The notes: generated from the sequence alone by a model not told the origin. 28,226 nt of DNA from Candidatus Woesearchaeota archaeon (GCA_964591395.1 CAZQAV010000001.1:1-28226), one strand, 5' to 3'. Shown: positions 1,919 to 21,874, numbered from the stretch's first letter. Numbers and translations: made by a program.

Positions 1919-2003
1919 GAAAAATAAAAGTTAGAAAGCTTTAAATTTGTTTGGTTTAATTTAGTATACAAAATATTTTAAAGTATTTTTCCTTTTTTTG
2001 TTC

Positions 2004-4292
2004 ATGAAATTTAAAGAGGGATCTCCATTATACACTCATGAAGTGCAAAGAGAGGGGGGGGAAGATGTATTATATATTAATTACCTTGGTGCATCTTATG
2101 TTCCCAGCCTAGCTGATTCTCCAGAAGTAATGGAAAGAACAGTTGATGCTTTAATTGAAAATCCAAATGTTTCAAGGATAGTATATGTGCAACAAAAAAA
2201 TTATAATTATGATTTTAAAGAAACTGTAAAAATGTTGGAAATAGCTCAATTATATGTTTATTTTGTTAAACAGGAAAAAGCATTATCCCAAGAAAAACTT
2301 ATTACAACAGATCAAAGTCTTTTTACACAAAGATATAATGAAATTTTTTCATTTTTGTTGTCTTTAAAGCAAGACCCTATTGCAGCATATAGCGAGCTTA
2401 AAAAATTAATTATAGAAGGAAAAATTAAACTTGAGAAAGTTTCTGAGAGTATTGGAACAGATCAAAAAAATTATAATTTATTTTTAGAAAAATTAATGAA
2501 ACTATTAGAAGAAACTAAATTAATTCATTCTGCAAGAAGATATATGGAAGGATATCAAAGAGGAAATAGGGAATTATATCATAGAATTTTCAAACCAGAT
2601 ATTATACCTAATTTCACATTTACACGTCTTGTTTCTGATTTGCCTGAAGAAGCTGAAATAATTAATCAATATAAAATTTCAAATGGAGAATATGATGAAT
2701 CTTATATAACAATATTAAGGGAGAAAGATGAACCAAAATATACTTACCATGTTGTTCCTCCAGAGCATACTTTAAAAGAAGATCATAATATGCTTTTGAA
2801 TTTAGCAAGAGGTGTTTTAATTGAGCACCAACCTAAGGCTGAAGAATTTACAGATACTGAAAGAACAAGACATGTTTTCTTTAATATTTCAAAAGATCTT
2901 TTACAGGATTTAGCAAAGACAAAAGGAGTTCCATTGAGCTATTCTGATTTGAATAAATTAGCAACAATATTAGTGAGACATACTATTGGTTTTGGATTGA
3001 TAGAAGTTTTGTTGCAAGATCCACATTTGCAAGATATATCTTTAAATGCACCTATACCAAGAACACCTGTTTTTGCAAGACATCAAGATTATGATGAATG
3101 TATAACAAATATATTACCAAGTCAAGAAGATGTTGATTCATGGGCAGCTAAATTTAGAATGATTTCGGGTAGACCTTTAGATGAATCTAATCCTATTTTA
3201 GATACTCAGTTAGAGATAGGGAGATTGAGAGCAAGAATAGCTATTATACAAAGCCCTTTATCTCCTGATGGATTAGCATATTCAATAAGAAGACATAGAG
3301 AAGATCCATGGACATTACCTTTGTTTGTTCAAAATGGAATGATTAGTCCTTTAGGTGCAGGTTTGCTTAGTTTTTTAATAGATGGTTCAAGAACAATATT
3401 AGTTGCAGGGACGAGAAGTAGTGGTAAAACATCTCTTCTTGGAAGTTTATTATTAGAGATAATCCCTAAATTTAGAATTATAACTGTTGAAGATTCATTA
3501 GAACTTCCTGTTGAGTCATTAAGAAAATTAGGTTATGATCTTGTTAGAATGAAAGTTAGAGCTGCTTTATTAAAAACAACAGCTGAAGTTTCTGCTGAAG
3601 ATGGGATAAGAACAAGTTTAAGATTAGGAGATAGTTGTTTAATTGTTGGTGAAGTTAGAAGTGCAGAGGCAAAAGCACTTTATGAGGCTATGAGGGTTGG
3701 GGCATTAGCAAATGTTGTAGCAGGGACAATACATGGTGCTTCTCCTTATGGTGTTTTTGATAGGGTTGTAAATGATTTAGGTGTTCCCACAACAAGTTTC
3801 AAAGCAACAGATATTATTGTAGTATGTAATCCAATTAAAACACCTGATGGTTTACATTCATGGAGAAGAGTTGTGAGAATTTCTGAGATAAGAAAACATT
3901 GGGTTAAAGATCCTCTTCTTGAAAAAGGGTTTGTTGATTTAATGAAATATAATGTTGAAAAAGATGAATTAGAAGCTACAGAGGATTTGATAAATGGAGA
4001 TAGTGAAATAATTAAAGGGATTGCTTCAAATATAAAAGGTTGGGCAGGTAATTGGGATGCTGTATATGATAATATATTATTAAGAGCTAAATTAAAAGAA
4101 GAAATAATCCATGTTGCTGAACAAGAAAAAGATCCAGATATATTAGAAGCTAAATTTAATACTTTATCAAATCATGCTTTCCATAGAATTTCAGATGAAG
4201 TTATACAAGAACATGGTTTACCTTTAAGTGAGCATGTTTTTCCTCTTTGGAAAAAATGGTTAACAGAAGAAATCAGGAAGAGGAAGATTTGA
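2004..4292 (+). CDS. Type II/IV secretion / type IV pilus assembly ATPase (VirB11/TadA/FlaI family)
   Basis: Walker A GTRSSGKTS, TVEDSLEL Asp box, Walker B LIVGEVR, His-box GTIHG. ATG 2004 is preferred over TTG 1998 because of TATA spacing. Confidence 0.93.
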   Translation: MKFKEGSPLYTHEVQREGGEDVLYINYLGASYVPSLADSPEVMERTVDALIENPNVSRIVYVQQKNYNYDFKETVKMLEIAQLYVYFVKQEKALSQEKLITTDQSLFTQRYNEIFSFLLSLKQDPIAAYSELKKLIIEGKIKLEKVSESIGTDQKNYNLFLEKLMKLLEETKLIHSARRYMEGYQRGNRELYHRIFKPDIIPNFTFTRLVSDLPEEAEIINQYKISNGEYDESYITILREKDEPKYTYHVVPPEHTLKEDHNMLLNLARGVLIEHQPKAEEFTDTERTRHVFFNISKDLLQDLAKTKGVPLSYSDLNKLATILVRHTIGFGLIEVLLQDPHLQDISLNAPIPRTPVFARHQDYDECITNILPSQEDVDSWAAKFRMISGRPLDESNPILDTQLEIGRLRARIAIIQSPLSPDGLAYSIRRHREDPWTLPLFVQNGMISPLGAGLLSFLIDGSRTILVAGTRSSGKTSLLGSLLLEIIPKFRIITVEDSLELPVESLRKLGYDLVRMKVRAALLKTTAEVSAEDGIRTSLRLGDSCLIVGEVRSAEAKALYEAMRVGALANVVAGTIHGASPYGVFDRVVNDLGVPTTSFKATDIIVVCNPIKTPDGLHSWRRVVRISEIRKHWVKDPLLEKGFVDLMKYNVEKDELEATEDLINGDSEIIKGIASNIKGWAGNWDAVYDNILLRAKLKEEIIHVAEQEKDPDILEAKFNTLSNHAFHRISDEVIQEHGLPLSEHVFPLWKKWLTEEIRKRKI

Positions 4293-4311
4293 AATTAATT
4301 TGAAAAAACAT

Positions 4312-4325
4312 AAATATTTTTAAAT
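4312..4325 (+). promoter_or_regulatory. Archaeal BRE/TATA-like promoter of the S8 protease gene
   Basis: AAATATTTTTAAAT; TTTTTAAA ends 21 nt before ATG 4346, and the same motif and spacing occur at 12371 and 14564. Confidence 0.65.
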
Positions 4326-4345
4326 GAATTTAACATTTGATTTTT

Positions 4346-7300
4346 ATGAAGAAAGGGGTTGCTATCGCATTTGTTTGTTTGAGTATATTTCTATTAATAT
4401 CTATGCCTTTGGTTTCTGCAGGTTGGTTTGATGATTTTTGGGCAAAGATAACTGGACAAGCTGTTGCCCATACTTGTAATGATCAAGGAAATAATTTAAT
4501 GATTAAAGAAAGATGTATAAATCCCTTATCTGAAGGGGGAATCACCTTGTGGGATAGATGTTCTGGAACAAATGTTCAACAAGCAAGTTGTGTTGCTGGA
4601 GATCTAGAAGATGTTTGTGAATATGCTATTGCTCAATCATGCCCTACAAATTATGAATGTTTTGATGGTGCTTGTGTTGAAGTGATTGCTGTTTGTGGTG
4701 ATGGGATTATTGAAGTTGATGAAGAATGTGATGGAATAAATTTAGGAGAATATACTTCTGATTGTGAAACTTACCCAGGTTATACTGGGGGAACATTAAG
4801 ATGTAGTACAGATTGTTTATTTGATACTCTTAAATGCCGAGGATATAATCCCCCCATAAGTATTTGTTTGGATACAGATGAAATTAATAATCTTAATATA
4901 CAAGGAGAATGTATAAGTAATTCAGGTAATCTAAATGATAGATGTTTTGGAACAAATGTTCAACAAGTAGGTTGTGTTTCTGGAGAAATGGGGGAGATGT
5001 GTGCATATTTAAGCACCCAATCATGTTCTATGGGCTATGCTTGTTTAGAAGGGATTTGTGTGGAACAAGGCGGTGGTGGGGAGGGAACTGGCGTTGTTAA
5101 TGCTTTTATTTCACTTGCAACATTAAAGGATGTTTATTTTATTGGAAGTCAAATAAATTTAACAGATCCTCCAGATAATAATGTTAGGGGTTTTGAACCT
5201 GGCGAAAAATTAATTTATGAAAATTCTATCACAGAACCAGAAAATAAGGGATATATTATTCAATTTGAAGATAAATCAATTTTAGAAAAAAAATTAGAGT
5301 TAGAAGAAAAAGCCCTTAAAAATGAAGATTCTTTTTTAATTAAGATTCCTGTTATAAGAAATTTGATACTTACTTCTAAAAAAGTTTCAGAGAAAATTGA
5401 AGATCATTCAGATAAATTAAGAAAAAATAAAGAAAAAATTAAAATAAAAATTTCAGATGAAATTTCGGCACATAGAAAAAAATCTTATGTTATTGAAGAA
5501 GAAAAAGAATTTGAAACTGTTTTTAATGGTATTGTTTTAGATATTCCCGAAATAGAAGCAGAAAAAATTAAAAAATTAAAGGGAGTAAAATCTGTTCATC
5601 CAAATAAAAGAGTTGAAGCAACACTTATGAATTCTGTTCCTTTAATAAATGCAACATCTGTTTGGAATGTGCAAGATGATTTTGGAAGGCCTTTAACAGG
5701 GCAAGATATAACCATTGCAATAATGGATACTGGTTTAGATTATTTTCATCCTGATTTGGGTGGTTGTTTTGGGATGGGTTGTAAAGTTATGGGGGGTTAT
5801 GATTTTGTTAATAATGATGAAGACCCAATGGATGATCATGGACATGGGACACATTGTGCTGCAACAGCTGCAGGAAATGGCGTTTTAAAAGGAGTTGCAC
5901 CAAATGCTAGTTTAATTGCATACAAGGTTTTAGATAGTGGTGGGTCTGGTTATTCAAGTACCATTATAAGTGCTATTGAACATTCAATAGACCCTAATCA
6001 AGATGGAAATATTTCAGATAGTTATGATATAATTAGTTTAAGTTTAGGGGGGTGGGGAAATCCAGATGATCCACTTTCTGTTTCAATAGATAATGTTGTT
6101 GATCAAGGTATTGTTGCTGTTATTGCTGCTGGAAATTCTGGTCCAAGTGAAAATACTATTGGAAGTCCAGGAACATCTAGAAAAGCAATAACTGTTGGAG
6201 CTAGTAATAATGAAAATGTGGCATATTTTAGTTCAAGAGGTCCTGTTATTTGGGAAGATCAAGAAAATATTGAGAGATTTTTGATTAAACCAGATGTAGT
6301 TGCCCCAGGAGTTAATATTTGTGCTGCCCAATATAATGGTGCATGGTCAGATAGGCAGTGTTTAGATAATAATCATGTAGCTATTTCAGGGACTTCAATG
6401 GCAACACCACATATTGCCGGAGTTGTAGCTTTAGTAAAGCAAGCCCATCCTAATTGGACTTCTGAAGAAATAAAAATGGCTTTAAGGGGAAGTACTATTG
6501 ATCTTGGGTATAATATTTTTGAGCAAGGATATGGTAGAATAGATGCATTTGATGTTGTTGATTTTAATGGCATTCCTTCTATTGCAAAATTAGAAGGGGG
6601 GGGAATTATTGAAGAAGAGCAAATAGATATAATAGGTACTGCTAAAGGAGTGGATTTTGATAGATATACCCTCTATTATGGGCTTGGAGAAAATCCAGAT
6701 GTATGGACAGAAATTATCACTTCTTATAGCCCTGCAGAAAATAATGTTTTGTATTCTAATTTTGATTCATCTTTATTACATGAAGGAAATAACTTTTTTC
6801 TTTTATCTGTTTGGAATACTAATGGGGAAATAATTGAAGACAGAAGTATTGCTATAATTAATAATATTATAATGCAAAGCCCACAATCTCAAGATATTTA
6901 TAGGTTAGGGTCTGATTTAGAAGTAGTGGGAACAATAAAAGGAAACTTTGATAATTTTTCAGTTAAATATAGAAGTGGTGGTTATGAAGATGAAGACCCA
7001 TGGTTAGATGCAGGAGTTTATCTTACTAATGGGGGACAAGGAGAAGTTATAGAAGATATTATTGCTATTTTAGATACAGGTAATAATATGTATTCAGGAA
7101 TTTATTCTATTGGAATAGAAGTTGCATTTAGCGATGGAATGCAAACATTTGAATATGTAGAAAACATTTATTTTGATGAAACTTTAAAACAAGGGTGGCC
7201 CCAACATATTGATTTTGAAATCTTTGAGGAAATATCTCTAGAGACCACCGCAAAGAGTTATAGTATAATTCCTAATTCTAATATTGGAAATGAGGGCCAA

Positions 7301-9100
7301 AGTATGGCAAGAACAGTTAGTGGTGAAAAAGCTATTGAATCACTTTTTTCAAATTTAGAACATAGGACTTATTGGGCAGGACAATTAGAACCTGTTGTAG
7401 CTGATATTAATAATGATGGATATAAAGAAATAATAATTTACAAAGGAGGAGATCCACCACAGATAATTGTTTATGATTATGATGGAAACGTTTTATGGTC
7501 TGAAGATGTTGGAACTACAGAGGCTTCTGGAGGTAATGTCCATATACCTTTAGTAGGAGATTTAAATAATGATAGTTATTTGGAAATTATTGCTTCGAAT
7601 TTTAAAAATCCATGGATGGCAGATGATTTTGATAATTCAACACTTTATGCGTTTGATTATGAGGGAAATCAACTTTGGTTTAAAGATATACCAAAGGATT
7701 ATCATCCAACAATGGTTCTTGCTGATTTGGATTTAGATGGGTTTAATGAAATTATTGTTAAAGGGAATGATGCCAAAATAGATAAGATGACTATTATTAG
7801 TAATGAAGGAGAAATAATTAATGAATGGTTAATTCCAAATAAAAGGTGGGGAGCATCTATTGAGGGTTCTCCTGCAGTTGGAAATTTTGATGATGATGAT
7901 GATTTAGAGATTGTTTCTGCAAGCCCTGCAGAAGGAGCAGGAGGTATATGGGGGGGAGGAGAATTTCTTGGTTGGAATAATACTGGGGTAATTTATATAT
8001 ATAATATGGATGGCTCTATAGTTGATGGTTGGCCGGTTTATACAGAAGGAGTTATTTTTTCATCCCCAGCAATAGGAGATATTGATAATAATGGGGAAAA
8101 TGACATTGTAGTAGGATTAATGTATGCTTCTGATATTTTTCCGGATTTAAATTATGGGGGAATATATGCTTTTGATAAAAATGGAAATATTTTGCCTGGT
8201 TGGCCTGTTGAACTAGGGTGGGAATTTTGGTCTAGTCCGTCTTTAGGAGATATTGATAATGATGGCGATTTAGAAATAGTTATTAGTAAATTAGGTTTTG
8301 GAACTTATTTATTTCACCATGATGGAAGTTTAGTAAATGGATGGCCACAAAGTACAACATGGAATGATTATTATTCTTCTATAATGGGGGATATTGATAA
8401 TGATGGAAGTATTGATATTCTTACTACTGCAGGAAATGGTTTTTATCCTAGTGTTTTTTATCATGGCGGTGTTTATGCATGGAATTCTTATGGATCTTTA
8501 ATAACAGGTTTTCCAAAGCGTACAGAATTAGATGCTCAAGCTCCAGCTGTTATTGATGATATTGATCAAGATGGCAAACTAGAATTAATTGCAAGTTCTG
8601 ATTTTGATTGGGATGGGTATAATAGTAAACATAGGGGAAGTTTATATGTTTGGGAATTAGATGGAAATTACAATGAAAATTTATTACCTTGGCCGACATT
8701 TCACCGTGATGTTGAACGTAGAGGAGCATATACATTACCTCAAGATGGTTCTTTACCCTTAATAAGACCCCAATCAAAAATTGTGAATAATATGGGACAT
8801 AATTTAACAGGGAATTTGCAGATGATATTACAAAGAGATATTGGAGAAGGGATTTGGGAAAGTGAGATAATTGTTAATAAAGAGGTTACAATACCTGGAA
8901 ATAGTCTTATTAAATTAGATTATGAATGGAATCCACAAAATGTTTATATATATCAAGTAGGAGATTACAAAGTTTATGCTGCTTTGTTTGATTTGGAGGG
9001 AAATATTTACCAAACACCACAGGGTCTTTTAGAAACAAGTTGGGAATTTAGGGTTGGTGGTGTAGCTGATAAAAAAGAAGATCCCTTATCTACAGATTAA
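4346..9100 (+). CDS. Secreted subtilisin-like (S8) serine protease with N-terminal Cys-rich modules and C-terminal FG-GAP/VCBS repeats
   Basis: Signal peptide ending VSA. Catalytic triad motifs IAIMDTG, HGHGTHCAATAAG and SGTSMATPHIAG; oxyanion AAGNSG; I9-like propeptide (FETVFNGIVL...VHPN). Eight (G/A/D)-D-x-D/N-x-D-G-x-x-E/D-I type repeats with GWP motifs. Confidence 0.93.
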   Translation: MKKGVAIAFVCLSIFLLISMPLVSAGWFDDFWAKITGQAVAHTCNDQGNNLMIKERCINPLSEGGITLWDRCSGTNVQQASCVAGDLEDVCEYAIAQSCPTNYECFDGACVEVIAVCGDGIIEVDEECDGINLGEYTSDCETYPGYTGGTLRCSTDCLFDTLKCRGYNPPISICLDTDEINNLNIQGECISNSGNLNDRCFGTNVQQVGCVSGEMGEMCAYLSTQSCSMGYACLEGICVEQGGGGEGTGVVNAFISLATLKDVYFIGSQINLTDPPDNNVRGFEPGEKLIYENSITEPENKGYIIQFEDKSILEKKLELEEKALKNEDSFLIKIPVIRNLILTSKKVSEKIEDHSDKLRKNKEKIKIKISDEISAHRKKSYVIEEEKEFETVFNGIVLDIPEIEAEKIKKLKGVKSVHPNKRVEATLMNSVPLINATSVWNVQDDFGRPLTGQDITIAIMDTGLDYFHPDLGGCFGMGCKVMGGYDFVNNDEDPMDDHGHGTHCAATAAGNGVLKGVAPNASLIAYKVLDSGGSGYSSTIISAIEHSIDPNQDGNISDSYDIISLSLGGWGNPDDPLSVSIDNVVDQGIVAVIAAGNSGPSENTIGSPGTSRKAITVGASNNENVAYFSSRGPVIWEDQENIERFLIKPDVVAPGVNICAAQYNGAWSDRQCLDNNHVAISGTSMATPHIAGVVALVKQAHPNWTSEEIKMALRGSTIDLGYNIFEQGYGRIDAFDVVDFNGIPSIAKLEGGGIIEEEQIDIIGTAKGVDFDRYTLYYGLGENPDVWTEIITSYSPAENNVLYSNFDSSLLHEGNNFFLLSVWNTNGEIIEDRSIAIINNIIMQSPQSQDIYRLGSDLEVVGTIKGNFDNFSVKYRSGGYEDEDPWLDAGVYLTNGGQGEVIEDIIAILDTGNNMYSGIYSIGIEVAFSDGMQTFEYVENIYFDETLKQGWPQHIDFEIFEEISLETTAKSYSIIPNSNIGNEGQSMARTVSGEKAIESLFSNLEHRTYWAGQLEPVVADINNDGYKEIIIYKGGDPPQIIVYDYDGNVLWSEDVGTTEASGGNVHIPLVGDLNNDSYLEIIASNFKNPWMADDFDNSTLYAFDYEGNQLWFKDIPKDYHPTMVLADLDLDGFNEIIVKGNDAKIDKMTIISNEGEIINEWLIPNKRWGASIEGSPAVGNFDDDDDLEIVSASPAEGAGGIWGGGEFLGWNNTGVIYIYNMDGSIVDGWPVYTEGVIFSSPAIGDIDNNGENDIVVGLMYASDIFPDLNYGGIYAFDKNGNILPGWPVELGWEFWSSPSLGDIDNDGDLEIVISKLGFGTYLFHHDGSLVNGWPQSTTWNDYYSSIMGDIDNDGSIDILTTAGNGFYPSVFYHGGVYAWNSYGSLITGFPKRTELDAQAPAVIDDIDQDGKLELIASSDFDWDGYNSKHRGSLYVWELDGNYNENLLPWPTFHRDVERRGAYTLPQDGSLPLIRPQSKIVNNMGHNLTGNLQMILQRDIGEGIWESEIIVNKEVTIPGNSLIKLDYEWNPQNVYIYQVGDYKVYAALFDLEGNIYQTPQGLLETSWEFRVGGVADKKEDPLSTD

Positions 9101-9178
9101 AATTCTTTTCATTAGATTTAAAAAAACATTTTTCCCAAATATTTATTAACCTTCCACGCAAAAAGCTTTATAAAGGAT

Positions 9179-9196
9179 TGTAACATAAATGTTACA
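9179..9196. promoter_or_regulatory. Perfect inverted repeat, putative autoregulatory operator of the MNT-HEPN pair
   Basis: TGTAACAT-AA-ATGTTACA lies between the TATA box TTTATAAA (9167-9174) and the start of a wHTH-containing gene. Confidence 0.65.
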
Positions 9197-9197
9197 T

Positions 9198-9734
9198 ATG
9201 AAACAAAATAGTTACAAGTTGGAAATAGTTGGAGAACTTATTAACAAAAAGGTTCATTTAAGAGCATTATCTAGAAAATTGGAAGTTAATCCAATGACTC
9301 TTTCTAGGAAGATAAAAGAATTAGTGAAGGAAAATGTTTTAGATTTTAAAGAAGAAGGGAAGAATAAAGTTTATTTTTTGAAAAAAACATCTGAAGCTAA
9401 AGCAAATGTTTTCATGGCTGAGCAGTATAAATTAACTCAGCTTTTGAAAAGATATCCTACATTGAGGAGTATTTTTGAAGATGTCCAAAAAAATAAGAAA
9501 ATTAATTTAGCAATTCTCTTTGGTTCTTATGCTAAAGGCATTGCCAAAAAAAATAGCGATATTGATATTTATATAGAAAGTACTAATATAAAATTAAAGA
9601 AAGAAATAGAAGATTTAAATATGAAATTAAATGTCAAAATAGGAAAATATAATAAAAATAATCTTCTTATAAAAGAGATTAAAAAAAATCATGTTATAAT
9701 AAAAGGGGTGGAGAAATTTTATGAAAATTTCTAA
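9198..9734 (+). CDS. wHTH + minimal nucleotidyltransferase (MNT) domain protein, putative antitoxin
   Basis: N-terminal HTH (HLRALSRKLEVNPMTLSRKIKEL) and MNT motif LFGSYAKG...SDIDI. An alternative in-frame ATG is at 9189; 9198 fits TATA spacing better. Confidence 0.88.
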   Translation: MKQNSYKLEIVGELINKKVHLRALSRKLEVNPMTLSRKIKELVKENVLDFKEEGKNKVYFLKKTSEAKANVFMAEQYKLTQLLKRYPTLRSIFEDVQKNKKINLAILFGSYAKGIAKKNSDIDIYIESTNIKLKKEIEDLNMKLNVKIGKYNKNNLLIKEIKKNHVIIKGVEKFYENF

Positions 9735-10191
9735 CTTTTTAAGGAAAATAAAAAAACAAAAACAATTAGAAATAGTTAAACCTAGCGAAGAAATCATGCA
9801 ATCTTATTTAGAAAATTCAAAAAGTTATATTTCTTCTGCAAAAATGTTATTTAAAGTTGGAAAATTAAAAGAACCTACACAATTAGTTTATTTTAGTATT
9901 TATTACTCTCTTTTAGGCCTTTTGTTTAAAATAGGAATTAAAAGTGAGAATCATTTAGCGTCTGCAATTTTGTTAAAAGAAATTTTTGATATAGATAATT
10001 CTTTTATTTTAGATTTTAGGAAAAGAAGAATAGAAACTTATTATCCTGATTTTGAGATAGAAAAAAAAGCTCTTAAAAAATTAATCCAAGACGCAGAGGA
10101 ATTTAATGAAGTTTTATTTGATTTTATTTCAAAGATTACAAAAGAAAATATTAAAATTTATCAAAATAAATTAAAAGATGTTTTAACCTAA
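9721..10191 (+). CDS. HEPN domain protein (COG1895-like), partner of the MNT protein
   Basis: Overlaps the MNT gene by 14 nt. Pattern YLENS..Y...A, YFSIYYSLLGLL..GIKSENH, RIETYY. Confidence 0.75.
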   Translation: MKISNFLRKIKKQKQLEIVKPSEEIMQSYLENSKSYISSAKMLFKVGKLKEPTQLVYFSIYYSLLGLLFKIGIKSENHLASAILLKEIFDIDNSFILDFRKRRIETYYPDFEIEKKALKKLIQDAEEFNEVLFDFISKITKENIKIYQNKLKDVLT

Positions 10192-10192
10192 A

Positions 10193-12355
10193 ATGCCACC
10201 TTATGAAAAACCTACTGTAGATGAAATATTAAGAAAGCATTCTGGTAAAATTGAAAAGCAAATGGCAGAAAGTGATGTTGGAGATTCTAATTATAGTAGT
10301 GAATATACAAAGTTTAGAGGGGAAATGTCTTCTAAATTATCTAGATATGAAAAATGGTGCCATAGTTTAGGTAATGTGATTAAATTAAAAGTTGCTGAAA
10401 AAGATGAAATAAAGATTAAAAGAAGTTTAGAGATAGCACATTTAGAAGTTGAGCCATGGCAATCTTTAACATTAAGTGTTATGGCTTTTGTAAGTGTATT
10501 TTTATTAGGATTGATAATATCTTTTGCAGTTGTTTTGATTAAAGGAAGTTTTAATGCTTTTCCGTTTTTATTTTTCTTTTTGATTATGATGTTGTCTTTA
10601 TTTTTGTTTTATTTTGTAAATGGTATTCCTGAACGTCTTGCAAATACATGGAGATTAAAAGCATCTTCACAAATGGTTCCAGCAATACTTTATGTTGTAG
10701 TATATATGAGGCATACTCCTAATTTAGAGAAAGCAATTGCTTTTGCATCTGAACATTTACAATATCCTCTTTCACTTGATCTTAAAAAAGTATTTTATAA
10801 TGTTGAAGTTGGCAAATTTTCTTCTATAAAAGATAGTTTAGATAATTATTTAGATGGTTGGAGAGATTATTCAACAGAATTTATTGAAGCGTTTCATTTA
10901 ATTGAAAATAGTTTATTTGAACCTGATAATGCAAGAAGGATAGTAACATTAGAGAAATCATTACAAGTTATATTGGAAGGAGTTTATGATAAAATGTTAA
11001 AGTTTACACATAATGTTAAAAGTCCGTTGACAAATGTTTACATGCTTGGGGTTGTACTACCTACACTTGGTCTTGCTCTTTTACCTTTAGCTTCTGCAAT
11101 GGTTGGAGGGATATTGCAATGGTATCATGTATTTATATTATTTAATATGGTTATTCCTTTTTTTGTATTTTATTTAACAGACAAAGTTTTATTATTAAGA
11201 CCAGGGGGATATGGTGAATCTGGTTTATTAGAAAGAAATCCTCTTTATGAAAAATATAAAGCTAAAGGGCATTTTTCAAAAGCATTTGCTATATGCCTTC
11301 CCTTTTTTATATTGGGTATAATGCCCCTTCTTTTTGGTTTTACACCTTTACCAGATATGTTAGGAATATCTTCTGATTTTAGTTTTGCAGAATTAGGCAT
11401 ATCTTTTTTTGGAGATGAAATGTTTTTTGGTTTTCAAGAAACAGCTTCAGGAGTTGCAGGGCCTTTTGGTGTAGGTGCTTTGATTTTAGGAATGTTTTTC
11501 CCTCTTGGATTAGCATTGTTTTTTTCAATGGCATATAAAAGTAAAACAAAGGAATTGATAAAAGAAAGAACTAAAACAAAACAACTTGAAAAAGAATTTA
11601 ATAATTCTTTATTTCAATTAGGTAATAGATTAGGTAATGGTGTTCCCCCTGAACTTGCTTTTGGAAGAGTAGCTGATTCATCTAAAGGTTTGATGACAGA
11701 AGATTTCTTTAGAAGAGTTAATTATAATATAAGGCAAATGGGTATGGGTGTTGAAAAAGCTGATTTTGATAAATCAAGGGGAGCTATTAATTATTATCCT
11801 TCTGATTTAATTTCTACAAGTATGAGAATAATGATAGAGTCTTCAAAGAAAGGTTTGAGAATAGCTGCTGTAAGTTTAATGAGTATATCTGAATATGTTA
11901 AAAATATTCAAAAAATAACAAATAGATTAAAAGATATGTTGGCGGAAATAGCGTCAGATATGAAAAGTAATATGACTTTCTTAGCTCCTTTATTATCTGG
12001 TATTGTTGTTGGTTTAGCTGCTATGATAACTTCTATATTAAGTAAATTAGATTTAGGGGCAGAAGCTGGTAATGAAGCTTTAATTGGGGGTCTAGGAAAT
12101 ATAACTCAATTATTTGAAATGGTGAATATGATTCCACCTTATTTTTTACAGATTGCAATTGGAATATATTTAATACAGATTATTTTTATATTAACAGGAA
12201 CATTAGTAACAATTGATTCAGGTGAAGATAAATTAGAAAAAATACATAAGACTGGAAAGAATTTAACAAAAGGAATTTTATTATATTTTATAACAGCTTT
12301 ATTAGCCATAACAGTATTATTTGTATTGTCTACAATTGTATTAAGTGGTTTGTGA
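10193..12355 (+). CDS. Pilus assembly membrane platform protein (TadB/TadC/FlaJ, T2SS-F family, probably two fused F domains)
   Basis: 720 aa with many TM segments. Motifs MRHTPNLEKAI and LGNRLGNGVPPELAF. Lies in the locus with the ATPase, pilins and prepilin peptidase. Confidence 0.85.
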   Translation: MPPYEKPTVDEILRKHSGKIEKQMAESDVGDSNYSSEYTKFRGEMSSKLSRYEKWCHSLGNVIKLKVAEKDEIKIKRSLEIAHLEVEPWQSLTLSVMAFVSVFLLGLIISFAVVLIKGSFNAFPFLFFFLIMMLSLFLFYFVNGIPERLANTWRLKASSQMVPAILYVVVYMRHTPNLEKAIAFASEHLQYPLSLDLKKVFYNVEVGKFSSIKDSLDNYLDGWRDYSTEFIEAFHLIENSLFEPDNARRIVTLEKSLQVILEGVYDKMLKFTHNVKSPLTNVYMLGVVLPTLGLALLPLASAMVGGILQWYHVFILFNMVIPFFVFYLTDKVLLLRPGGYGESGLLERNPLYEKYKAKGHFSKAFAICLPFFILGIMPLLFGFTPLPDMLGISSDFSFAELGISFFGDEMFFGFQETASGVAGPFGVGALILGMFFPLGLALFFSMAYKSKTKELIKERTKTKQLEKEFNNSLFQLGNRLGNGVPPELAFGRVADSSKGLMTEDFFRRVNYNIRQMGMGVEKADFDKSRGAINYYPSDLISTSMRIMIESSKKGLRIAAVSLMSISEYVKNIQKITNRLKDMLAEIASDMKSNMTFLAPLLSGIVVGLAAMITSILSKLDLGAEAGNEALIGGLGNITQLFEMVNMIPPYFLQIAIGIYLIQIIFILTGTLVTIDSGEDKLEKIHKTGKNLTKGILLYFITALLAITVLFVLSTIVLSGL

Positions 12356-12385
12356 GGTTTTTGAAAACATAAATATTTTTAAAGG
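12331..12385 (+). repeat. Direct repeat copy 1: last codons of the platform gene plus downstream promoter
   Basis: TACAATTGTATTAAGTGGTTTGTGAGGTTTTTGAAAACATAAATATTTTTAAAGG; 52 of 55 positions match 14525-14578. Confidence 0.9.
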
Positions 12386-12404
12386 AATTTATCTTTTGGT
12401 TTTT

Positions 12405-14099
12405 ATGAAAAGAGGAATCAGTGTTTTGTTTATTTGTGTTAGTTTAATATTATTAATTTCGATGCCTTTTGTTTCTGCAGGTTGGTTTGGAGATTTCTGG
12501 GGAAAGATTACCGGACAAGTTGTTGCTGATACATGTAATGATCAAGGAAATAATTTAATGGTTAAAGAAAGGTGTATAAATCCCTTATCTGGAGGAGGAA
12601 ATACATTATGGGATAGATGTTCTGGAGAAAATGTTCAACAAGTAGAATGTGTTGCAGGAGATGTAGAGGAGGTATGTGGTTATGTAACAGCCCAATCATG
12701 TGGTACAGGATATGAATGTTCTGATGGTGCTTGTGTTGAAATTTCTGCTGTTTGTGGTGATGGTCTTGTAAGTAGTAGTGAAGAATGTGATGATGGAAAT
12801 ATTGTAAATGGAGATGGTTGTTCAAGTACTTGTATAATTGAAGAATGTTCAAATACTTGTGATACTTTAGGATATGAATGTGGAACACATAATATTTGTG
12901 GATATCCTATGGATTGTGGTTCTTGCAATAATGGTTTTTCTTGTAATATAAGTGTTTGTGAGGAGAGAGCGTGTAATGATAGTGATGGGGGTTTTGATTA
13001 TTATAATGAAGGAATTTGTACAGATTCGACTGGAAATTTTTCAGATATTTATTCTGGAACAGCATTAGTAGAATATTATTGTTTAAATAACGGTTGTATT
13101 GCCTCAGCTCCTTTTGTTTGTGAACAAGGCCAAGGAAATGTTTGCTTGGAAGAAGAAATTGGGGGAGAAGATTTAGGGATTTACAATGGATGCTCTGAAT
13201 TAAATGGGCAGGTTCTTGATAATTTTGTGGGAGTAGGAGTAAGAATTACAAGTGAAAGAATAATATATTATTGTGATCCAATTAGTTTAGAATTTGAAAT
13301 TACAAAATCTGATGAATTTTCTTGCAGTGAAAATTATGAATGTTTATCCAATGATTGTAATTCTGGAATTTGTGTAGATATTTCAGAAGAATTAGAAAAT
13401 CAAGCAAGTTTTTTGAAAAAAATTTGGTGTGGTATTTTACATCCAATTGATGCTTCAAATAGAAATGATGACGGAGAAGATCAATCAAATAATCAGTGGT
13501 GGGCATGTGTTATTGGGGAGGATGGAGAATGTTCAAATACTTGTGATACTTTAGGATATGAATGTGGGACACAAAATATTTGTGGAGATTCTGTTTCTTG
13601 CGGAACATGTGGGCTTGGAGAAGATTGTATTGGGGGCTTTTGTGAATTCCCTCATCTTTGGATAAGTTCAGGTGCTGAATTAAAATCTTGTGATTTTTCT
13701 GGAAACTGCACAGATCATGGGGGCCAAGGAACTTCTGGTTGGTCAAAAGCTATTTATAATAACAAACTTTGGATTGGGGGACGTAATGGGGGATTAAGAT
13801 CATGTGACCCTTCTGGAAACTGCACAGATCATGGTATAAAAGCAGGAAATATAATAAATTCAATGGCTGTTTATAATAACAAACTTTGGATGGGAGATGG
13901 TGCTGGCCGTTTAAGATCATGTGACTCTTCAGGAAATTGCGTGGGAGAAGGGAATCATGGAGAAAATATTATGTCTATGATTATTTATAATAATAAACTC
14001 TGGTTGGGTCAATCTACTTTTGGTAGTCTTGGGCATGGCCGTTTAAAATCTTGTGACCCTTCTGGAAACTGCACAGACCATGAGGATCAAGGACGCTGA
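12405..14099 (+). CDS. Secreted Cys-rich surface protein (DUF4215-like repeat, Cys modules, first beta-propeller-like repeats), ended early by an in-frame TGA
   Basis: Signal peptide MKRG...VSA-GWF; CGDG...EECDDGN..NGDGCSSTC. ATG 12405 lies 21 nt after TTTTTAAA; the track start at 12345 lies inside the platform gene. Confidence 0.85.
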   Translation: MKRGISVLFICVSLILLISMPFVSAGWFGDFWGKITGQVVADTCNDQGNNLMVKERCINPLSGGGNTLWDRCSGENVQQVECVAGDVEEVCGYVTAQSCGTGYECSDGACVEISAVCGDGLVSSSEECDDGNIVNGDGCSSTCIIEECSNTCDTLGYECGTHNICGYPMDCGSCNNGFSCNISVCEERACNDSDGGFDYYNEGICTDSTGNFSDIYSGTALVEYYCLNNGCIASAPFVCEQGQGNVCLEEEIGGEDLGIYNGCSELNGQVLDNFVGVGVRITSERIIYYCDPISLEFEITKSDEFSCSENYECLSNDCNSGICVDISEELENQASFLKKIWCGILHPIDASNRNDDGEDQSNNQWWACVIGEDGECSNTCDTLGYECGTQNICGDSVSCGTCGLGEDCIGGFCEFPHLWISSGAELKSCDFSGNCTDHGGQGTSGWSKAIYNNKLWIGGRNGGLRSCDPSGNCTDHGIKAGNIINSMAVYNNKLWMGDGAGRLRSCDSSGNCVGEGNHGENIMSMIIYNNKLWLGQSTFGSLGHGRLKSCDPSGNCTDHEDQGR

Positions 14100-14321
14100 A
14101 TTAGGTCTATGGCTGTTTATAAAAATAAACTTAGGATAGGTCAACAAGAAGGAAGCTTACAATCTTGTGATTTTTCTGGAAACTGCATAGACTATGGAGA
14201 TAAGGGAGATGATATTATTTCAATGGCGGTTTACGATGATAAACTTTGGATTGGCCAAGATAATGGTCGTTTAAAATCTTGTGACCCTTCTGGAAACTGC
14301 ACAGACCATGAGGATCAAGGA
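14040..14321 (+). repeat. Identical 54-bp intragenic direct repeat (14040-14093 and 14268-14321)
   Basis: Both copies encode RLKSCDPSGNCTDHEDQG; spacing 228 bp. Confidence 0.9.
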
Positions 14322-14492
14322 AGCAGCATTAGGTCAATGGCTTTTTATAATAATAAACTCTGGTTGGGTCAAGGAGATAGTATTGGAGGGAATGATGGGG
14401 TATTACAATCTTGTGATCAATTAGGAAATTGTGTCTCTCATCAATATTATAATAAGATTATTTTTTCTATGACTGTTTTCCCTGAAGAATAA
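14100..14492 (+). pseudogene. In-frame C-terminal continuation of the 12405 gene (propeller repeats 5-7) after a nonsense codon
   Basis: Same frame as 12405. GGA CGC TGA ATT AGG TCT ATG parallels GGA AGC AGC ATT AGG TCA ATG in a later repeat. No promoter or RBS precedes ATG 14109. Confidence 0.8.
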
Positions 14493-14524
14493 AATTATTT
14501 CTCCAAACATTTATTAATTTTATT

Positions 14525-14578
14525 TACAATTGTATTAAGTGGCTTGTGAGGTTTTTGAAACATAAATCTTTTTAAAGG
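14525..14578 (+). repeat. Direct repeat copy 2: relic of the platform gene 3' end plus promoter
   Basis: TACAATTGTATTAAGTGGCTTGTGAGGTTTTTGAAACATAAATCTTTTTAAAGG, 2194 bp after copy 1. Confidence 0.9.
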
Positions 14579-14597
14579 GGTTTTTCTTAAGGTGTTT

Positions 14598-16457
14598 ATG
14601 AAAAAAGGTGTTGCTGTTGCGTTTGTTTGTTTGAGTATATTTTTATTAATGTCTATGTCTTTTGTTTCTGCAGGTTGGTTTGATAATTTTTGGGGAAGGA
14701 TTACTGGAAATCCGGTGGATACCTGTTTTGATACAGATAATGGTATTAATTATGGTCTTCAGGGAAGTTGTACTGGTCCTGGAACTCCGGGAACAGATTA
14801 TTGTATTGGTGCTTCAACTTTTAGAGAATATTATTGTGGGGGTGCAAGCGCAACTTCATGTGTTGCTGCAACATTTTCTTGTGATTCAGGACAATCATGT
14901 AATAATGGTGCTTGTATAACTGCTGGATGTGGTAATAATGTTTTAGAAGCTGGAGAAGGATGTGATGATGGAAATACTGTTTCAGGAGATGGATGTAATG
15001 CAGCATGTATGACTGAATCTTTTTTAGAGTGTACAGGAAATATCCCTTCTAATTATTGCGATCAATTTTATAATTCTCCTTGGGGATGTAATGGTAATGC
15101 GCCTGCTATATGCGCAAATAGAAATTGTAATGATGATGGGCAAGGAACCACATGTAGTGACTGTGATTTAACTGTAAATTCTTGTGCTAGTTTAACAACT
15201 GTAGCAAATTGTAATGCTATTCCAACATGTATGACTAGTTATGAATATTGTGGGGATGGGATAAGAACAGCTGGTGAAGATTGTGATGATGATAATAATA
15301 TAGATGGGGATGGATGTTCAATGGCTTGTGAAGTTGAAGCTGGTTATACTTGTGCAGGTATGCTTTCAGTATGTACCCCAATACCAGATATAGAATGTGG
15401 TAATAATATTTTAGAAGCTGGTGAAGATTGTGATGATGGAAATACTGTTTCAGGAGATGGATGTTCTGCAACATGTGGTTTAGAATCTGGAACATGTGCG
15501 GGAACTAGTGCTATGGGGGCTATATGTACTTTTCCATTTGTGGTTAATGATCAAACAGAATGTACAACAATAAATTCAGAATATTGTTCTTGGACAGGAT
15601 CTGCATGTGCTGCAAAACCATGTTCAAATTGGAATGGGGATATCACTGGTTGTGGAAATAGTGGATGTACTTGGGATCCTGCTGCAGCTCAGACAGTATG
15701 TGGAAATGGGATTATAGAAGGAACAGAAGAATGTGATGGTGCAAATACAAATTCTCAAACATGTAGTTCACAAGGATTAGGTTCTGGAAATCTAGCATGT
15801 AATTCAGATTGTACATTTAGTGCCCATAAATGTTCAAATACTCAAAGTAGTGGTGTTTGTGGAAATGAAGTTGTAGAAGGTAGAGAAGAATGTGATGGTC
15901 CTAGTTTAAATTCTCAAACATGTAGTTCACAAGGTTTTGATTCTGGACAATTAGGTTGTAATTCCTTATGTAGGTTTGATACTTCAAATTGTGGAACAGA
16001 TATTCCAAATTTATGTACTGATGAAGGAGATGAATTAACTATTAAAGAACGTTGTGTTGATTCTACAGAAACTCAATGGGATCACTGTTATGGGGAAGAG
16101 GTTGTAGAATATGAATGTAGTTCTGGAGATTCATGTGTGATATCTAATGCTGGACAAGCACGAGCATGTTCAAATGGTCAAACATGTCAGGACGGAGCAT
16201 GTATAGGAGACCCCTATGTGCCCCCTACAGGAGATTGTGAAGATAATGAATGCTTTTTAGATAATTTATGTTATCCGATAGGATACAGAGTAGGAGGGGA
16301 TTACTGTGAGATTACAGGACTATTTGTAAGTCAGTCAGCTCAAGGGGTTTGTAATAATCATTTTGAATGTTCAAGCAATCTTTGTGTTGATGGTGCTTGT
16401 ATTGAACCAGGATTTTTCCAAAGATTAATTCAGTGGTTTAGAGGTTTGTTTAGTTAA
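14598..16457 (+). CDS. Secreted Cys-rich surface protein with DUF4215 (Myxococcus Cys-rich)-like repeats
   Basis: Signal peptide ending VSA-GWF. Three CG(N/D)...CDD(G/D)N...GDGC units and two CGN..EG.EECDG..NSQTC units. C-terminal amphipathic PGFFQRLIQWFRGLFS. Confidence 0.88.
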   Translation: MKKGVAVAFVCLSIFLLMSMSFVSAGWFDNFWGRITGNPVDTCFDTDNGINYGLQGSCTGPGTPGTDYCIGASTFREYYCGGASATSCVAATFSCDSGQSCNNGACITAGCGNNVLEAGEGCDDGNTVSGDGCNAACMTESFLECTGNIPSNYCDQFYNSPWGCNGNAPAICANRNCNDDGQGTTCSDCDLTVNSCASLTTVANCNAIPTCMTSYEYCGDGIRTAGEDCDDDNNIDGDGCSMACEVEAGYTCAGMLSVCTPIPDIECGNNILEAGEDCDDGNTVSGDGCSATCGLESGTCAGTSAMGAICTFPFVVNDQTECTTINSEYCSWTGSACAAKPCSNWNGDITGCGNSGCTWDPAAAQTVCGNGIIEGTEECDGANTNSQTCSSQGLGSGNLACNSDCTFSAHKCSNTQSSGVCGNEVVEGREECDGPSLNSQTCSSQGFDSGQLGCNSLCRFDTSNCGTDIPNLCTDEGDELTIKERCVDSTETQWDHCYGEEVVEYECSSGDSCVISNAGQARACSNGQTCQDGACIGDPYVPPTGDCEDNECFLDNLCYPIGYRVGGDYCEITGLFVSQSAQGVCNNHFECSSNLCVDGACIEPGFFQRLIQWFRGLFS

Positions 16458-16502
16458 TTTTATTTTAGTTAGATTTATTAATACTCTTGCATTTTTTTTC
16501 TC

Positions 16503-16670
16503 ATGAATAGCCTAAAGGCCATAAATAAAAAAGGGATTATTAACGATTATCTTCCATGGTTGTTGATAGCAATAGCTGTTCTTGCTATTATTGTGATATC
16601 AATAATTTCTATGAAAGAAAGTGGAATTTCATTTATAGACCAAATTAAAAACTTATTGAGAATGAGATAA
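16503..16670 (+). CDS. 55-aa mini-pilin with class III signal peptide (not in ORF track)
   Basis: MNSLKAINKKG/IINDYLPWLLIAIAVLAIIVISIISMKESGISFIDQIKNLLRMR*. TTTATTAA ends 21 nt upstream; its stop overlaps the next ATG (TAATG). Confidence 0.8.
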   Translation: MNSLKAINKKGIINDYLPWLLIAIAVLAIIVISIISMKESGISFIDQIKNLLRMR

Positions 16671-16831
16671 TGGAATTAACAATATCAAATCTTGTTAAAA
16701 TGATCTTAGGATTATTTGCTGTGGTGTTTATTATATTTGGTTTTTATATGGTTTTGAAAGGTTCTATAGGTGATTTGTTTAGAGGTTTTACATCTGGAAC
16801 ACCTTTAGAATTAATTTTATCATTAATATGA
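16670..16831 (+). CDS. 53-aa hydrophobic pilin-like protein without a basic leader (not in ORF track)
   Basis: MELTISNLVKMILGLFAVVFIIFGFYMVLKGSIGDLFRGFTSGTPLELILSLI*. TAATG overlap upstream and ATGA overlap downstream. Confidence 0.75.
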   Translation: MELTISNLVKMILGLFAVVFIIFGFYMVLKGSIGDLFRGFTSGTPLELILSLI

Positions 16832-17295
16832 AAAACAAAAAAGGATTTTTATTAGCAGAAGAAACATTAAAGATAATTGTATCTGTGATTGCTATAACTT
16901 TTCTTATATATTTTCTTACCTCTTTATATAATATAAACCAAGATAATAGAGATTTAGAATTAGCACAAACTTCTCTTGAACATTTAATAGAAGAGGTAAA
17001 AGCAGAATCTTCTTCTGTAGATATATATAATCCTAAAGGATGGAGTATCTTATCTTGGGTAGAAGGAAATAATCCAAGATCTTGTTCCAATTTTGATTGG
17101 GAAAAATGTATATGTATGTGTGAAAACCCGTGGATAAAAGGAGAAAATAGATTTTTAAAAAAATGTGATGATGTAGGTTATTGTTTGGAAGCTGAAAATA
17201 TATCTATTTCAGATTATATTAATATAAATGAAGTTCCACTTAAATTAAATATTGTTTATGATGAAGAAGGAAAAGCAGATATAACACGAGGATAA
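16828..17295 (+). CDS. Pilin-like protein, class III signal peptide
   Basis: MKNKKG/FLLAEETLKIIVSVIAITFLIYFL; Cys-containing C-terminal domain. Confidence 0.85.
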   Translation: MKNKKGFLLAEETLKIIVSVIAITFLIYFLTSLYNINQDNRDLELAQTSLEHLIEEVKAESSSVDIYNPKGWSILSWVEGNNPRSCSNFDWEKCICMCENPWIKGENRFLKKCDDVGYCLEAENISISDYININEVPLKLNIVYDEEGKADITRG

Positions 17296-17297
17296 AA

Positions 17298-17402
17298 ATG
17301 AATTTAAATATGATGATAAAATATATAATCTGGGCTTTCTTTCTCGCTTTAGCTTTAACAGGTTTGTATTTTTTACTTAGAAATCTGGGGATAACAATAT
17401 GA
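17298..17402 (+). CDS. 34-aa single-TM microprotein (not in ORF track)
   Basis: MNLNMMIKYIIWAFFLALALTGLYFLLRNLGITI*. Fills the gap exactly, with an ATGA overlap with the next gene. Confidence 0.7.
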   Translation: MNLNMMIKYIIWAFFLALALTGLYFLLRNLGITI

Positions 17403-18139
17403 TTAATTTAAAAGTCACAAATAAAAAAGGAGAGATAACAACACAACAAATAGTTATGTTAGTAATATTGGTAATTAGTTTTAGTGTTATATTGTTTTTA
17501 ATGTTTAGATTAAATTTAGGAGAAACTACTAATGATGAAATTTGCCATAATTCTGTTTTACTTCAAAAAAGCACATTAAAAAAAGGACCTTTAGATTGTA
17601 GAACAAATTATATGTGCGTGTCTGCAGAAGAAGATTGTGAAGATTTTAATTATGATAAAAAAGTTGATGTTGGAAATAAAAATGAAGCTATGGGGGTTAT
17701 AGCTGATGAGATGGCTAAATGTTGGTGGATGTTTGGAGAAGGTGAAATAAATTATGTTAATGAATGGAAGGGAACACATTGCGCTATATGTAATATTGCA
17801 AAGTTAAGTACAGATATTGGAGATATATCTTATCAAGAGTTTTATGAATTTTTAGAAAAAAATACAACAGAAATAAGGGGTCCAACTTATTTAGAATATT
17901 TGTATGGGGTTAATAGTTTAGAGAACTTATATGAAGTTGATGAAGGTTCAAAAGAAAAAATTTCAGAGGGAAATATTTTATCTGGAGAAAAATATTCAAT
18001 TATAACAGGTAGAAATAAAGAAGTAGATTTTCTTGGATTATGGGATAGAGAAGATTTTGTTCTTAGATCATATATTGTTAAATCAGATGAAATAAATGAA
18101 AAAACAGAATGTAATGTTTTTGATATTACAAAAGCATAA
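17399..18139 (+). CDS. Pilin-like protein, class III signal peptide
   Basis: NKKG/EITTQQIVMLVILVISFSVILFL; several Cys including CWWMFGEG. Confidence 0.85.
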   Translation: MINLKVTNKKGEITTQQIVMLVILVISFSVILFLMFRLNLGETTNDEICHNSVLLQKSTLKKGPLDCRTNYMCVSAEEDCEDFNYDKKVDVGNKNEAMGVIADEMAKCWWMFGEGEINYVNEWKGTHCAICNIAKLSTDIGDISYQEFYEFLEKNTTEIRGPTYLEYLYGVNSLENLYEVDEGSKEKISEGNILSGEKYSIITGRNKEVDFLGLWDREDFVLRSYIVKSDEINEKTECNVFDITKA

Positions 18140-18147
18140 TAATTAAT

Positions 18148-18555
18148 ATGATATTAAAAAAAATTTCTAAAAAAGGAAATATATTAACAGAAAATATTAT
18201 CTTTATTATTCTTAATTTGGTTTTTCTTACAATTTTAATGTTATTTTTATTTTCTAAGATAGATTCAACAGCCACTCTCGAAGAGAAATATGCTAAACAG
18301 ATAGCTCTTATTATTGATTCAGGTATGCCTGAGATGGTTATTAAATTAGATATGGGTGATGCTTATGGGAAATTAGAAGAAGGTCTTATTTGGAATGAAT
18401 CTGTTAAAATAAATGGAAATAAAGTGTATGTTAAATTAAGTGATCGGGGAGGATATGAATATTCTTTTTTTAATAATATTGAAGTAAATTCTTATCCAGA
18501 TAACCCTGAGAAAGAAGTTTATGTTTTTATTTTAAGTGAGGTGAAAAATGAATAA
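18148..18555 (+). CDS. Pilin-like protein, class III signal peptide
   Basis: SKKG/NILTENIIFIILNLVFLTILMLFL. Confidence 0.85.
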   Translation: MILKKISKKGNILTENIIFIILNLVFLTILMLFLFSKIDSTATLEEKYAKQIALIIDSGMPEMVIKLDMGDAYGKLEEGLIWNESVKINGNKVYVKLSDRGGYEYSFFNNIEVNSYPDNPEKEVYVFILSEVKNE

Positions 18556-19081
18556 CCTATACCCTAAAGGGCACAAGAAGGTGATGAATAAGGCTGGTGA
18601 TGGAAAAATAATATCTATGTATTGGTTTTTGATTTTATTTTTAATAGCTGCTGCTGTTGTTTATATGGCTTCTATGTATTATGGTAATCCATATGATATA
18701 CGAGAATATGAAGCAAAATCATTATCAAATAAAATAGCTGATTGTATTTCTATGGGGGGATATATAGATAAAGCATTTTTGGAAAATGAGATTGATATAT
18801 TGAATAAATGTGGTTTGAATTTTGAAGTTGAAGATATATCTAATTGGACAATGGATAGTGAATATTATGTTGAGGTAGAAATTAATCTTTATGGGGGAGG
18901 AAATTATAAAACTTTTGAGATGGGAAATATTAATTTGAAAGATTTTTGTTCAGACTTGGGGGGAAATTATAATCCTGTTTGTAAGGAAAGAAGTTTTTAT
19001 GTTTTAGGAAAAGAAGATAATAAAAAATATCAAGTAGATATAAAATCTGCAGTAAGAAAAACTGAAAAAAATGTACAATAA
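18548..19081 (+). CDS. Pilin-like protein, atypical class III signal
   Basis: MNKAG/DGKIISMYWFLILFLIAAAVVYM; overlaps both neighbours. Confidence 0.78.
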   Translation: MNNLYPKGHKKVMNKAGDGKIISMYWFLILFLIAAAVVYMASMYYGNPYDIREYEAKSLSNKIADCISMGGYIDKAFLENEIDILNKCGLNFEVEDISNWTMDSEYYVEVEINLYGGGNYKTFEMGNINLKDFCSDLGGNYNPVCKERSFYVLGKEDNKKYQVDIKSAVRKTEKNVQ

Positions 19082-19831: not shown

Positions 19832-19872
19832 TAACACAAAACATTTTTAAACAAAATAAACTTAAAAATAAC

Positions 19873-20277: not shown

Positions 20278-20325
20278 AATTAATTCTTTACAAATTTATT
20301 TAAATTAAGTTTTTCTTTATTTAGC

Positions 20326-21864: not shown

Positions 21865-21874
21865 TTTTTTAGGT

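Follow-up and report, generated by a model that had tools for sequence, protein, structure and literature searches.

Conserved 5' ends that recombine through shared upstream homology are found in the vlp/vsp genes of Borrelia, with their upstream homology sequence, and in the variable lipoproteins of Mycoplasma. Archaeal type IV pilus loci are reportedly the subject of a review by Makarova et al. (2016), which is cited in PMC6142677. Among Nanoarchaeota, non-synonymous variation is raised in surface proteins and in a FlaJ/TadC homologue (PMC6142677), in broad agreement with the picture given here. The locus described here lies in a stretch of 28,226 nucleotides (nt) from a Candidatus Woesearchaeota archaeon (GCA_964591395.1, CAZQAV010000001.1:1-28226), which is called the window throughout. 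It is a type IV pilus-like locus with an ATPase (PF00437), a TadC/GspF-like platform gene (tadC below), two micro-open reading frames (micro-ORFs), a row of pilin-like genes and an A24 prepilin peptidase (PF01478). The 3' end of tadC and the putative promoter that follows it recur as a direct repeat between two secreted-protein genes, A and B, which stand downstream of tadC. The sequence between A and B (14495-14549) very likely represents the promoter and the 3' end of a copy of tadC whose interior has been lost, so that the region would be a duplication scar with a ghost tadC.

Compared with the archaeal type IV pilus (Tad-like) loci, the window was similar in the co-orientation of its ATPase, platform, pilin-like and A24 prepilin peptidase genes and in the fast-changing surface proteins that adjoin them, but the change here was structural, consisting of gene gain, relocation and a ghost gene at the junctions, and was not one of single-nucleotide polymorphism density. 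The variable families of Borrelia and Mycoplasma share with it a promoter and signal peptide that are conserved in DNA across unrelated mature parts, together with a mismatch of heads and bodies that implies recombination; unlike those families, this one had a promoter on every copy and neither a lone expression site nor a silent archive, and the assemblies and contigs examined gave no sign of switching. Integrative elements (with tRNA-type attachment sites) and integron cassettes also leave a copy of a gene's 3' end downstream of inserted DNA and also occupy junctions where the genes vary among relatives. They differ from the present locus, where there was no integrase, no attC-like inverted repeat and no element-borne function, where each gene had its own promoter, and where the insert carried the promoter of the target gene, unlike an element. 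The closest likeness was to segmental (tandem) duplication, in which dispersed repeats cross over unequally and the redundant copy is later deleted. Direct repeats, a breakpoint in a repeated promoter and a remnant that holds the promoter as well as the 3' tail of the lost gene are common to both, and a dedicated recombinase is not needed; the difference is that the driving repeats here would be the conserved heads of a surface-protein family in an archaeal pilus operon. The locus is neither an integron cassette nor an integrative element nor a transposon, and it behaves like the scar of a segmental duplication.

The direct repeat and the probable remnant of tadC

Alignment of positions 12331-12385 (55 nt) with 14525-14578 (54 nt) gave 52 identities, two substitutions and one single-base gap, which confirmed the 52/55 match of the tadC 3' end and promoter reported in a preliminary description of the window. 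The two copies were in direct orientation at a spacing of 2194 nt. The first comprised the seven final codons and the TGA of the 720-residue tadC reading frame followed by 30 nt, and the second was located inside the 105-nt spacer that runs from the gene A stop (14492) to the gene B start (14598). None of 100 dinucleotide shuffles gave a match to a 44-nt piece of the repeat. The repeat was also present in two independent JGI assemblies of the same population, in which contig L140 (110 kb, 99.885% identical to window positions 10873-26457) and contig L141 (4 kb, 99.68% identical to 13845-17897) both crossed the end of gene A, the repeat and gene B; L140 was identical to the window over 14490-14600, and L141 showed no difference over 14134-14620. 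Since the repeat was unchanged in both assemblies and its two copies differed from each other at three positions, an assembly artefact was ruled out. The junction of tadC and gene A was crossed by an ENA contig (L139, 99.75% identical) and by one Logan contig.

The preliminary description took the 55-mers as the bounds of a discrete 2194-bp cassette, and this part of it failed, because the homology ran on beyond 14578, weaker at about 80%, through the signal peptide and the GWF..FWG.ITG motif of A and B to 12515 and 14708, into a promoter/signal-peptide head that is found across the gene family. Identity between the A and B regions was 95% across the 55-mer and about 68% in the 19 nt that separate it from the ATG; for the first 37 codons it was 79%, and the fall from 95% to about 68% past the TATA core looks like a crossover point. 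The head (about 12364 to 12515 in the case of A) combined a Sec-type signal peptide and the GWF..FWG.ITG motif with a TATA-like core (ACATAAATATTTTTAAAGG) whose centre lay about 27 nt ahead of the ATG. It recurred before a subtilase gene upstream of tadC (gene C) and before a gene for 1251 amino acids (aa) on contig C5 (gene D), and the promoter core was present in all four heads. The tadC tail accompanied the heads of A and B only, and those of C and D had none. Further genomic copies of the 55-mer were found for its promoter part, before C and D, and were not found for its tadC tail, which occurred at two sites only in the 446-kb, 61%-complete assembly.

Genes A and B each kept a TATA-type promoter of their own, whose distance of about 27 nt from the ATG suggests leaderless mRNAs, and the promoter half of the 55-mer is shared because it is, judged by its motifs, functional DNA. 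The tail relic itself has no role. Two copies of the tail lay in the same orientation, one of them in its native context, and no comparable second copy was found in the 19 insertion-bearing relatives scanned. The proteins of relatives end with similar residues, so the tail is native to tadC and the upstream copy was the source. The earlier view of the second copy as a non-coding relic of the tadC 3' end, recording a duplicative rearrangement, was borne out.

A further piece of tadC, which the preliminary description had missed, was found directly before the relic. The 30 nt from the gene A stop to the relic consisted of TTCTCCAAACATTTATTAATT followed by TTTATT, and positions 14495-14521 matched the DNA upstream of tadC in relatives (21/21 in locus L061 and 23-24/25 in loci L064, L107 and L059). 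The sequence after gene A was closer to the relatives' tadC-upstream regions than to the regions upstream of the first micro-ORF, so1, which hold the pilin promoter (rank test, p=1.6e-4, indicative only, as the loci are related). When the four genes A to D were compared in their 3' flanks, the A-C pair alone was clearly above shuffles, and it was this likeness that led to the reading of the sequence as a tadC promoter. The motif [CT]CCAAANATTTATTAA had two matches only in the assembly, one after gene C and one after gene A. The motif at 9131-9150, after gene C, was also closer to the tadC-upstream than to the so1-upstream regions of relatives (rank test, p ~1e-5, likewise indicative only for related loci). 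A nucleotidyltransferase (NTase)/HEPN gene pair parts this motif from tadC, which suggests that the insertion of the pair split tadC from the promoter it originally had; the pair, but no subtilase, was present in the nearest relative. The duplicated unit therefore kept material of both ends of tadC, the promoter motif standing directly before the tail, and the deletion junction in the proposed ghost would fall at 14524/14525. A tadC promoter at this place would mean that a whole copy of tadC was once there or was copied through.

Another account of the 24/25 identity in non-coding DNA is that selection has preserved the relic as a site of regulation, for instance with the palindrome TACAATTGTA as an operator common to the promoters of A and B, in which case the identity would be uninformative on age. 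A perfect palindrome of 10 bp did open the repeat (12331-12340 and 14525-14534), about 45 nt upstream of each TATA core. However, it was absent from heads C and D, and its four sites in the genome, two of them inside unrelated sequence, were about as many as base composition predicts by our own estimate; no role for it was evident. The RNA folds of both repeat copies were unremarkable, that of the relic being no better than shuffles (z +0.75), and Rfam gave no family in the window. We consider selection of this kind very improbable.

Integrative elements typically duplicate the 3' end of the gene that they target, and the preliminary description had proposed that the unit could be excised or amplified. 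In such a view gene A would be a mobile cassette (integron-like, an integrative element or a transposon), and the 55-mers would be its attachment sites or a target duplication. This we regard as extremely unlikely. No integrase, transposase or recombinase was found among those ORFs of the window that were scanned with Pfam and NCBIfam, in agreement with the earlier account, and the 2194-nt unit held gene A only. As to the hallmarks of insertion sequences, miniature inverted-repeat transposable elements and transposons, the unit had no terminal inverted repeats, and the 55-nt repeat extended as family homology. As to an integron attC, there were no inverted repeats at the unit ends, the fold was not above shuffles, and both genes had a TATA-like promoter. 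The tail sequence was nowhere else in the genome, and a 29-nt tail-promoter pattern was without a match in JGI metagenome contigs, in a scan that may omit records of this or a very near genome.

Excision was assessed in the assembler (Logan) contigs of four marine runs (X1-X4), and neither excision nor amplification was seen. The sole joint, from 12401 to 14595 in two runs, could be taken to favour a mobile cassette, but its left arm of 38 nt began exactly at the head homology, it carried two letters of the head-D type (14649 and 14651) while not being identical to head D, and the depth of gene A was not below that of its flanks. The joint is best explained as a paralogous head, from an unassembled paralogue or a strain variant, and we did not take it for excision. 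The loose ends that X3 and X4 showed at 12366 and 12515 matched exactly the flanks of an A-orthologue of the type described below for locus L142, and were rejected as coming from a co-occurring relative.

Relationships among genes A to D and a proposed history

The nearest paralogue of B was gene D on contig C5, with which it was collinear over 538 residues at 60% aa identity and a synonymous divergence (dS) of 0.45. Nearest to A were the N-domain of gene C (70% aa and ~81% nt identity, dS 0.40) and an orthologue upstream of tadC in L142. The first ~430 nt of gene C were ~81% identical to gene A, and the repeat designated D4, which pairs 4370-4669 with 12429-12728, was 82% identical. A and B themselves shared 43% aa identity over the first 148 residues (dS 0.71), and 40% aa and 59% nt identity after the signal peptide. 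The heads of B, C and D were 86-89% identical in nt among themselves, and head A was 75-79% identical to the others; the leader of A beyond the TATA core resembled those of C and D, unlike that of B. The heads accordingly grouped as B+C+D and the N-domains as A+C and B+D. Heads, bodies and 55-mer thus gave three different groupings, which we read as the product of recombination among family members, and which excludes the simple case of a single gene duplicated in tandem to give A and B.

Such a duplication was the model of the preliminary description, in which a single cassette after tadC was tandemly duplicated with its left breakpoint 25 nt inside tadC, and A and B are the diverged copies. 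The direct repeat at 2194-nt spacing agrees with this, as do the common head and N-domain architecture of A and B. The relationships of the two genes speak against their being two products of one event, B being far closer to D than to A, and A closer to C and to the orthologue that lies upstream of tadC elsewhere. At the synonymous divergence of A-B or B-D, a neutral 55-mer is expected to have collected 18-25 changes, against three observed, and the model leaves the tadC promoter before the relic unexplained. We hold it to be very improbable.

The order of genes in L142 (tadC 74% identical) was ATPase, A-orthologue, tadC promoter motif, tadC and a B-like gene. The orthologue (P0127) was full length, with 51% identity to gene A at 100% coverage and the same ending, and the promoter motif followed it about 25 nt before the tadC start. 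This order is likely the ancestral one.

On balance we favour the following path as a whole. The ancestor would have had the order of L142, with the ATPase, head A, the tadC promoter, tadC, head B and the pilin operon. Two head promoters, one following the ATPase gene and the other following tadC, would have undergone unequal homologous recombination, with a tandem duplication of the block [A, tadC promoter, (NTase-HEPN,) tadC] as the result. The crossover may have fallen inside the shared TATA core, so that the sequences upstream of A and B would be nearly identical up to the core and differ after it, and the leader of A would be like those of C and D. The second, redundant tadC would then have been deleted except for its promoter and last 25 nt; alternatively, a single replicative template switch could have given the same topology. 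The upstream copy of the A type would later have taken a different payload and become the subtilase gene C. The net result would be a surface-protein gene of the A type moved from before to after tadC, in tandem with a resident gene of the B type. What was observed is the repeat, the promoter of the ghost, the relationships of the genes and their synteny; the order and mechanism of the events, and the activity of the promoters, are inferred.

Several points weigh against this path. No intermediate with two full copies of tadC was found. The N-domains of A and C were ~19% diverged in nt (dS 0.40), against a single change in the 25 nt of the ghost tail, where one common event would predict ~2.5-5 changes; the tension is mild (P roughly 0.05-0.3). 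The AT-rich promoter motifs are short and could be convergent in part, and their function as promoters is suggested by position and motif.

The same final structure would also result from a one-step insertion in which no second tadC ever existed. A fragment [A + tadC promoter] from the upstream junction of the same genome or a related strain would have entered downstream of tadC through homology-facilitated illegitimate recombination, with its anchor in the head promoter and a target duplication of 33-55 nt. This would account for a 55-mer only 5% diverged while A is far from B, C and D, and it accords with the fast turnover of the cassette content of the locus between close lineages. On the other side, it calls for two joins, one homologous and one illegitimate, at positions that would duplicate DNA of the recipient, and the donor copy of A upstream of tadC is absent in this genome. 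Sequence alone cannot separate the insertion from a duplication with deletion; we judge the insertion unlikely, though a serious candidate.

Relatives and other features of the pilus locus

The claim that relatives vary after tadC was upheld: they had none, one or two genes of varied kinds at this place. In sixteen reference genomes of the same family, tadC was separated by a short spacer, which bears a TTTATTAA promoter, from the two micro-ORFs and the pilins, and no gene A or B was present. In a set of 81 metagenomic loci (L059-L138 and L142; tadC 65-78% identical), the gap from tadC to so1 was at most 150 nt in 37 of the 65 informative loci and more than 450 nt in 20, where the inserted genes were varied and in either orientation. 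The gap from the ATPase to tadC was at most 200 nt in 13 and more than 200 nt in 48 of the 61 informative loci, so that both operon junctions are variable. The genes inserted at the junctions were unrelated to one another and often encoded secreted proteins. No tail relic comparable to that of the window was found in the 19 insertion-bearing loci scanned, and locus L127 carried a single gene of the head type downstream of tadC.

The nearest relative (tadC 89% identical; the contig carrying P0003, ENA ERZ24794679) had the order ATPase with intein, NTase, HEPN, tadC, one gene for 563 aa and so1, with no subtilase, and thus one gene after tadC where this genome had two. Its 563-aa gene was not among the best matches of A or B. 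Its ATPase was 1464 aa long, with an intein and LAGLIDADG, whereas that of the window was 764 aa long with no intein. The NTase/HEPN pair adjoined the 5' side of tadC in the window, in the same order as in this relative.

The features of the locus are collected in Table 1. Archaeal markers in the window were RadA, RPA and the A24 prepilin peptidase. Homologues of the platform protein were labelled Candidatus Pacearchaeota or Nanoarchaeota, and the runs that held the sequence were marine. The platform protein had no direct sequence match in Pfam, NCBIfam or the PDB; its conserved position, the name TadB that JGI gives to homologues and an Atlas feature similarity to archaeal GspF/T2SSF clusters (0.96-0.98) point to a TadC/GspF-like identity. 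Exact look-ups of tadC and of a 127-aa distal ORF gave no match.

Table 1. Coordinates of the features discussed, in window positions unless a contig is named
Feature	Position	Strand	Remarks
Pilus assembly ATPase (T2SSE / FlaI-TadA-like)	1998..4292	+	Pfam PF00437 (4.8e-16); NCBIfam FlaI and TadA models
Head copy C	4306..4456	+	TATA-like promoter, Sec signal peptide and GWF motif, before subtilase gene C; 79-84% identity with heads A and B
Gene C, secreted subtilase with FG-GAP repeats	4346..9100	+	Pfam S8, I9, FG-GAP
tadC-promoter-type motif (CCCAAATATTTATTAA) after gene C	9131..9150	+	now parted from tadC by the NTase/HEPN pair
Nucleotidyltransferase + HEPN gene pair, toxin-antitoxin-like	9189..10191	+	Pfam Polbeta/NTP_transf_2, HEPN
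tadC/GspF-like platform gene, 720 aa	10193..12355	+	conserved 51-89% across the order; found in 40/41 relatives
Repeat copy 1	12331..12385	+	last 22 coding nt of tadC + TGA, T5 run, B-recognition element (BRE)/TATA-like core of the putative gene A promoter
Head copy A	12365..12515	+	putative promoter, signal peptide, GWFGDFWGKITG motif
Gene A, secreted Cys-rich protein	12405..14492	+	one DUF4215 unit, ~seven 38-aa propeller-like repeats
Putative ghost tadC promoter (TTCTCCAAACATTTATTAATT...)	14495..14521	+	matches conserved tadC-upstream region of many relatives and the spacer between A-orthologue and tadC in L142
Putative ghost tadC 3' end	14525..14549	+	25 nt, 24/25 identical to 12331-12355, non-coding
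Repeat copy 2	14525..14578	+	ghost tail, T5 run, BRE/TATA-like core of the putative gene B promoter
Head copy B	14558..14708	+	sequence match to the other heads
Gene B, secreted protein	14598..16457	+	five Cys-rich acidic (DUF4215 / TIGR02232) repeats, C-terminal amphipathic helix
Native pilin-operon promoter (TTAGATTTATTAAT) and two micro-ORFs	16472..16831	+	so1 16503-16670, so2 16670-16831
Head copy D	contig C5 7581-7716		before 1251-aa gene D

The two micro-ORFs (so1, 55 aa, and so2, 53 aa) stood between gene B and the first pilin gene, and most relatives had both directly after tadC. The pattern of so1 was M..KKG.I.DYLPWLL, and so2 was a hydrophobic ORF of 50-55 aa.

The C-terminal part of gene A was made up of the propeller-like 38-aa repeats, and in the window this part contained an in-frame TGA at 14097-14099, where L140 read an intact ORF of 695 aa. 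L141, which covers the 3' part of gene A, had the same non-stop letters as L140 at these positions. The window had 13 differences from L140/L141 inside gene A, clustered at 14078-14133 and including a Trp-to-Arg change, and its tract 14040-14093 was identical to 14268-14321. Because of this identity and the disagreement with both contigs, the TGA is a strain-level conversion between blades or a local misassembly, and not a property of the population. An alternative genetic code was ruled out, since tadC ends in TGA and both L140 and L141 read GGA.

A tandem repeat of 152 nt was present at 24650-24957, within the gene at 24542-25582, with its first two copies 99% identical. L140 differed from the window at 24650-24957, which suggests variation of copy number or sequence between strains.

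Shared heads and the surface-protein repertoire

Across the family the heads were 75-89% identical in nt on genes with unrelated mature parts (subtilase, propeller and DUF4215 arrays), and a weaker version was seen before the gene at 22340 (22340-22420). These shared heads may act as portable homology, by which Pacearchaeota would move, duplicate and swap genes of host-interaction surface proteins between the two pilus-operon junctions, as a cassette-shuffling platform that is tied to the pilus machine and works without a recombinase; the ghost tadC would then be the first footprint of one such move to have been caught. We offer this idea as speculative and consider it unlikely to hold in this full form.

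More narrowly, the variable junctions of relatives and the mismatch of heads and bodies suggest that ordinary homologous recombination, and not mobile elements, reshuffles the adhesin-like repertoire next to the pilus machine. The scar allows one rearrangement in an uncultivated, host-dependent archaeon to be rebuilt base by base, in which a surface-protein gene changed sides with respect to the pilus platform gene, as it seems via recombination between repeated promoters. The mechanism is not new; the locus provides context for how DPANN archaea diversify their host-contact proteins.

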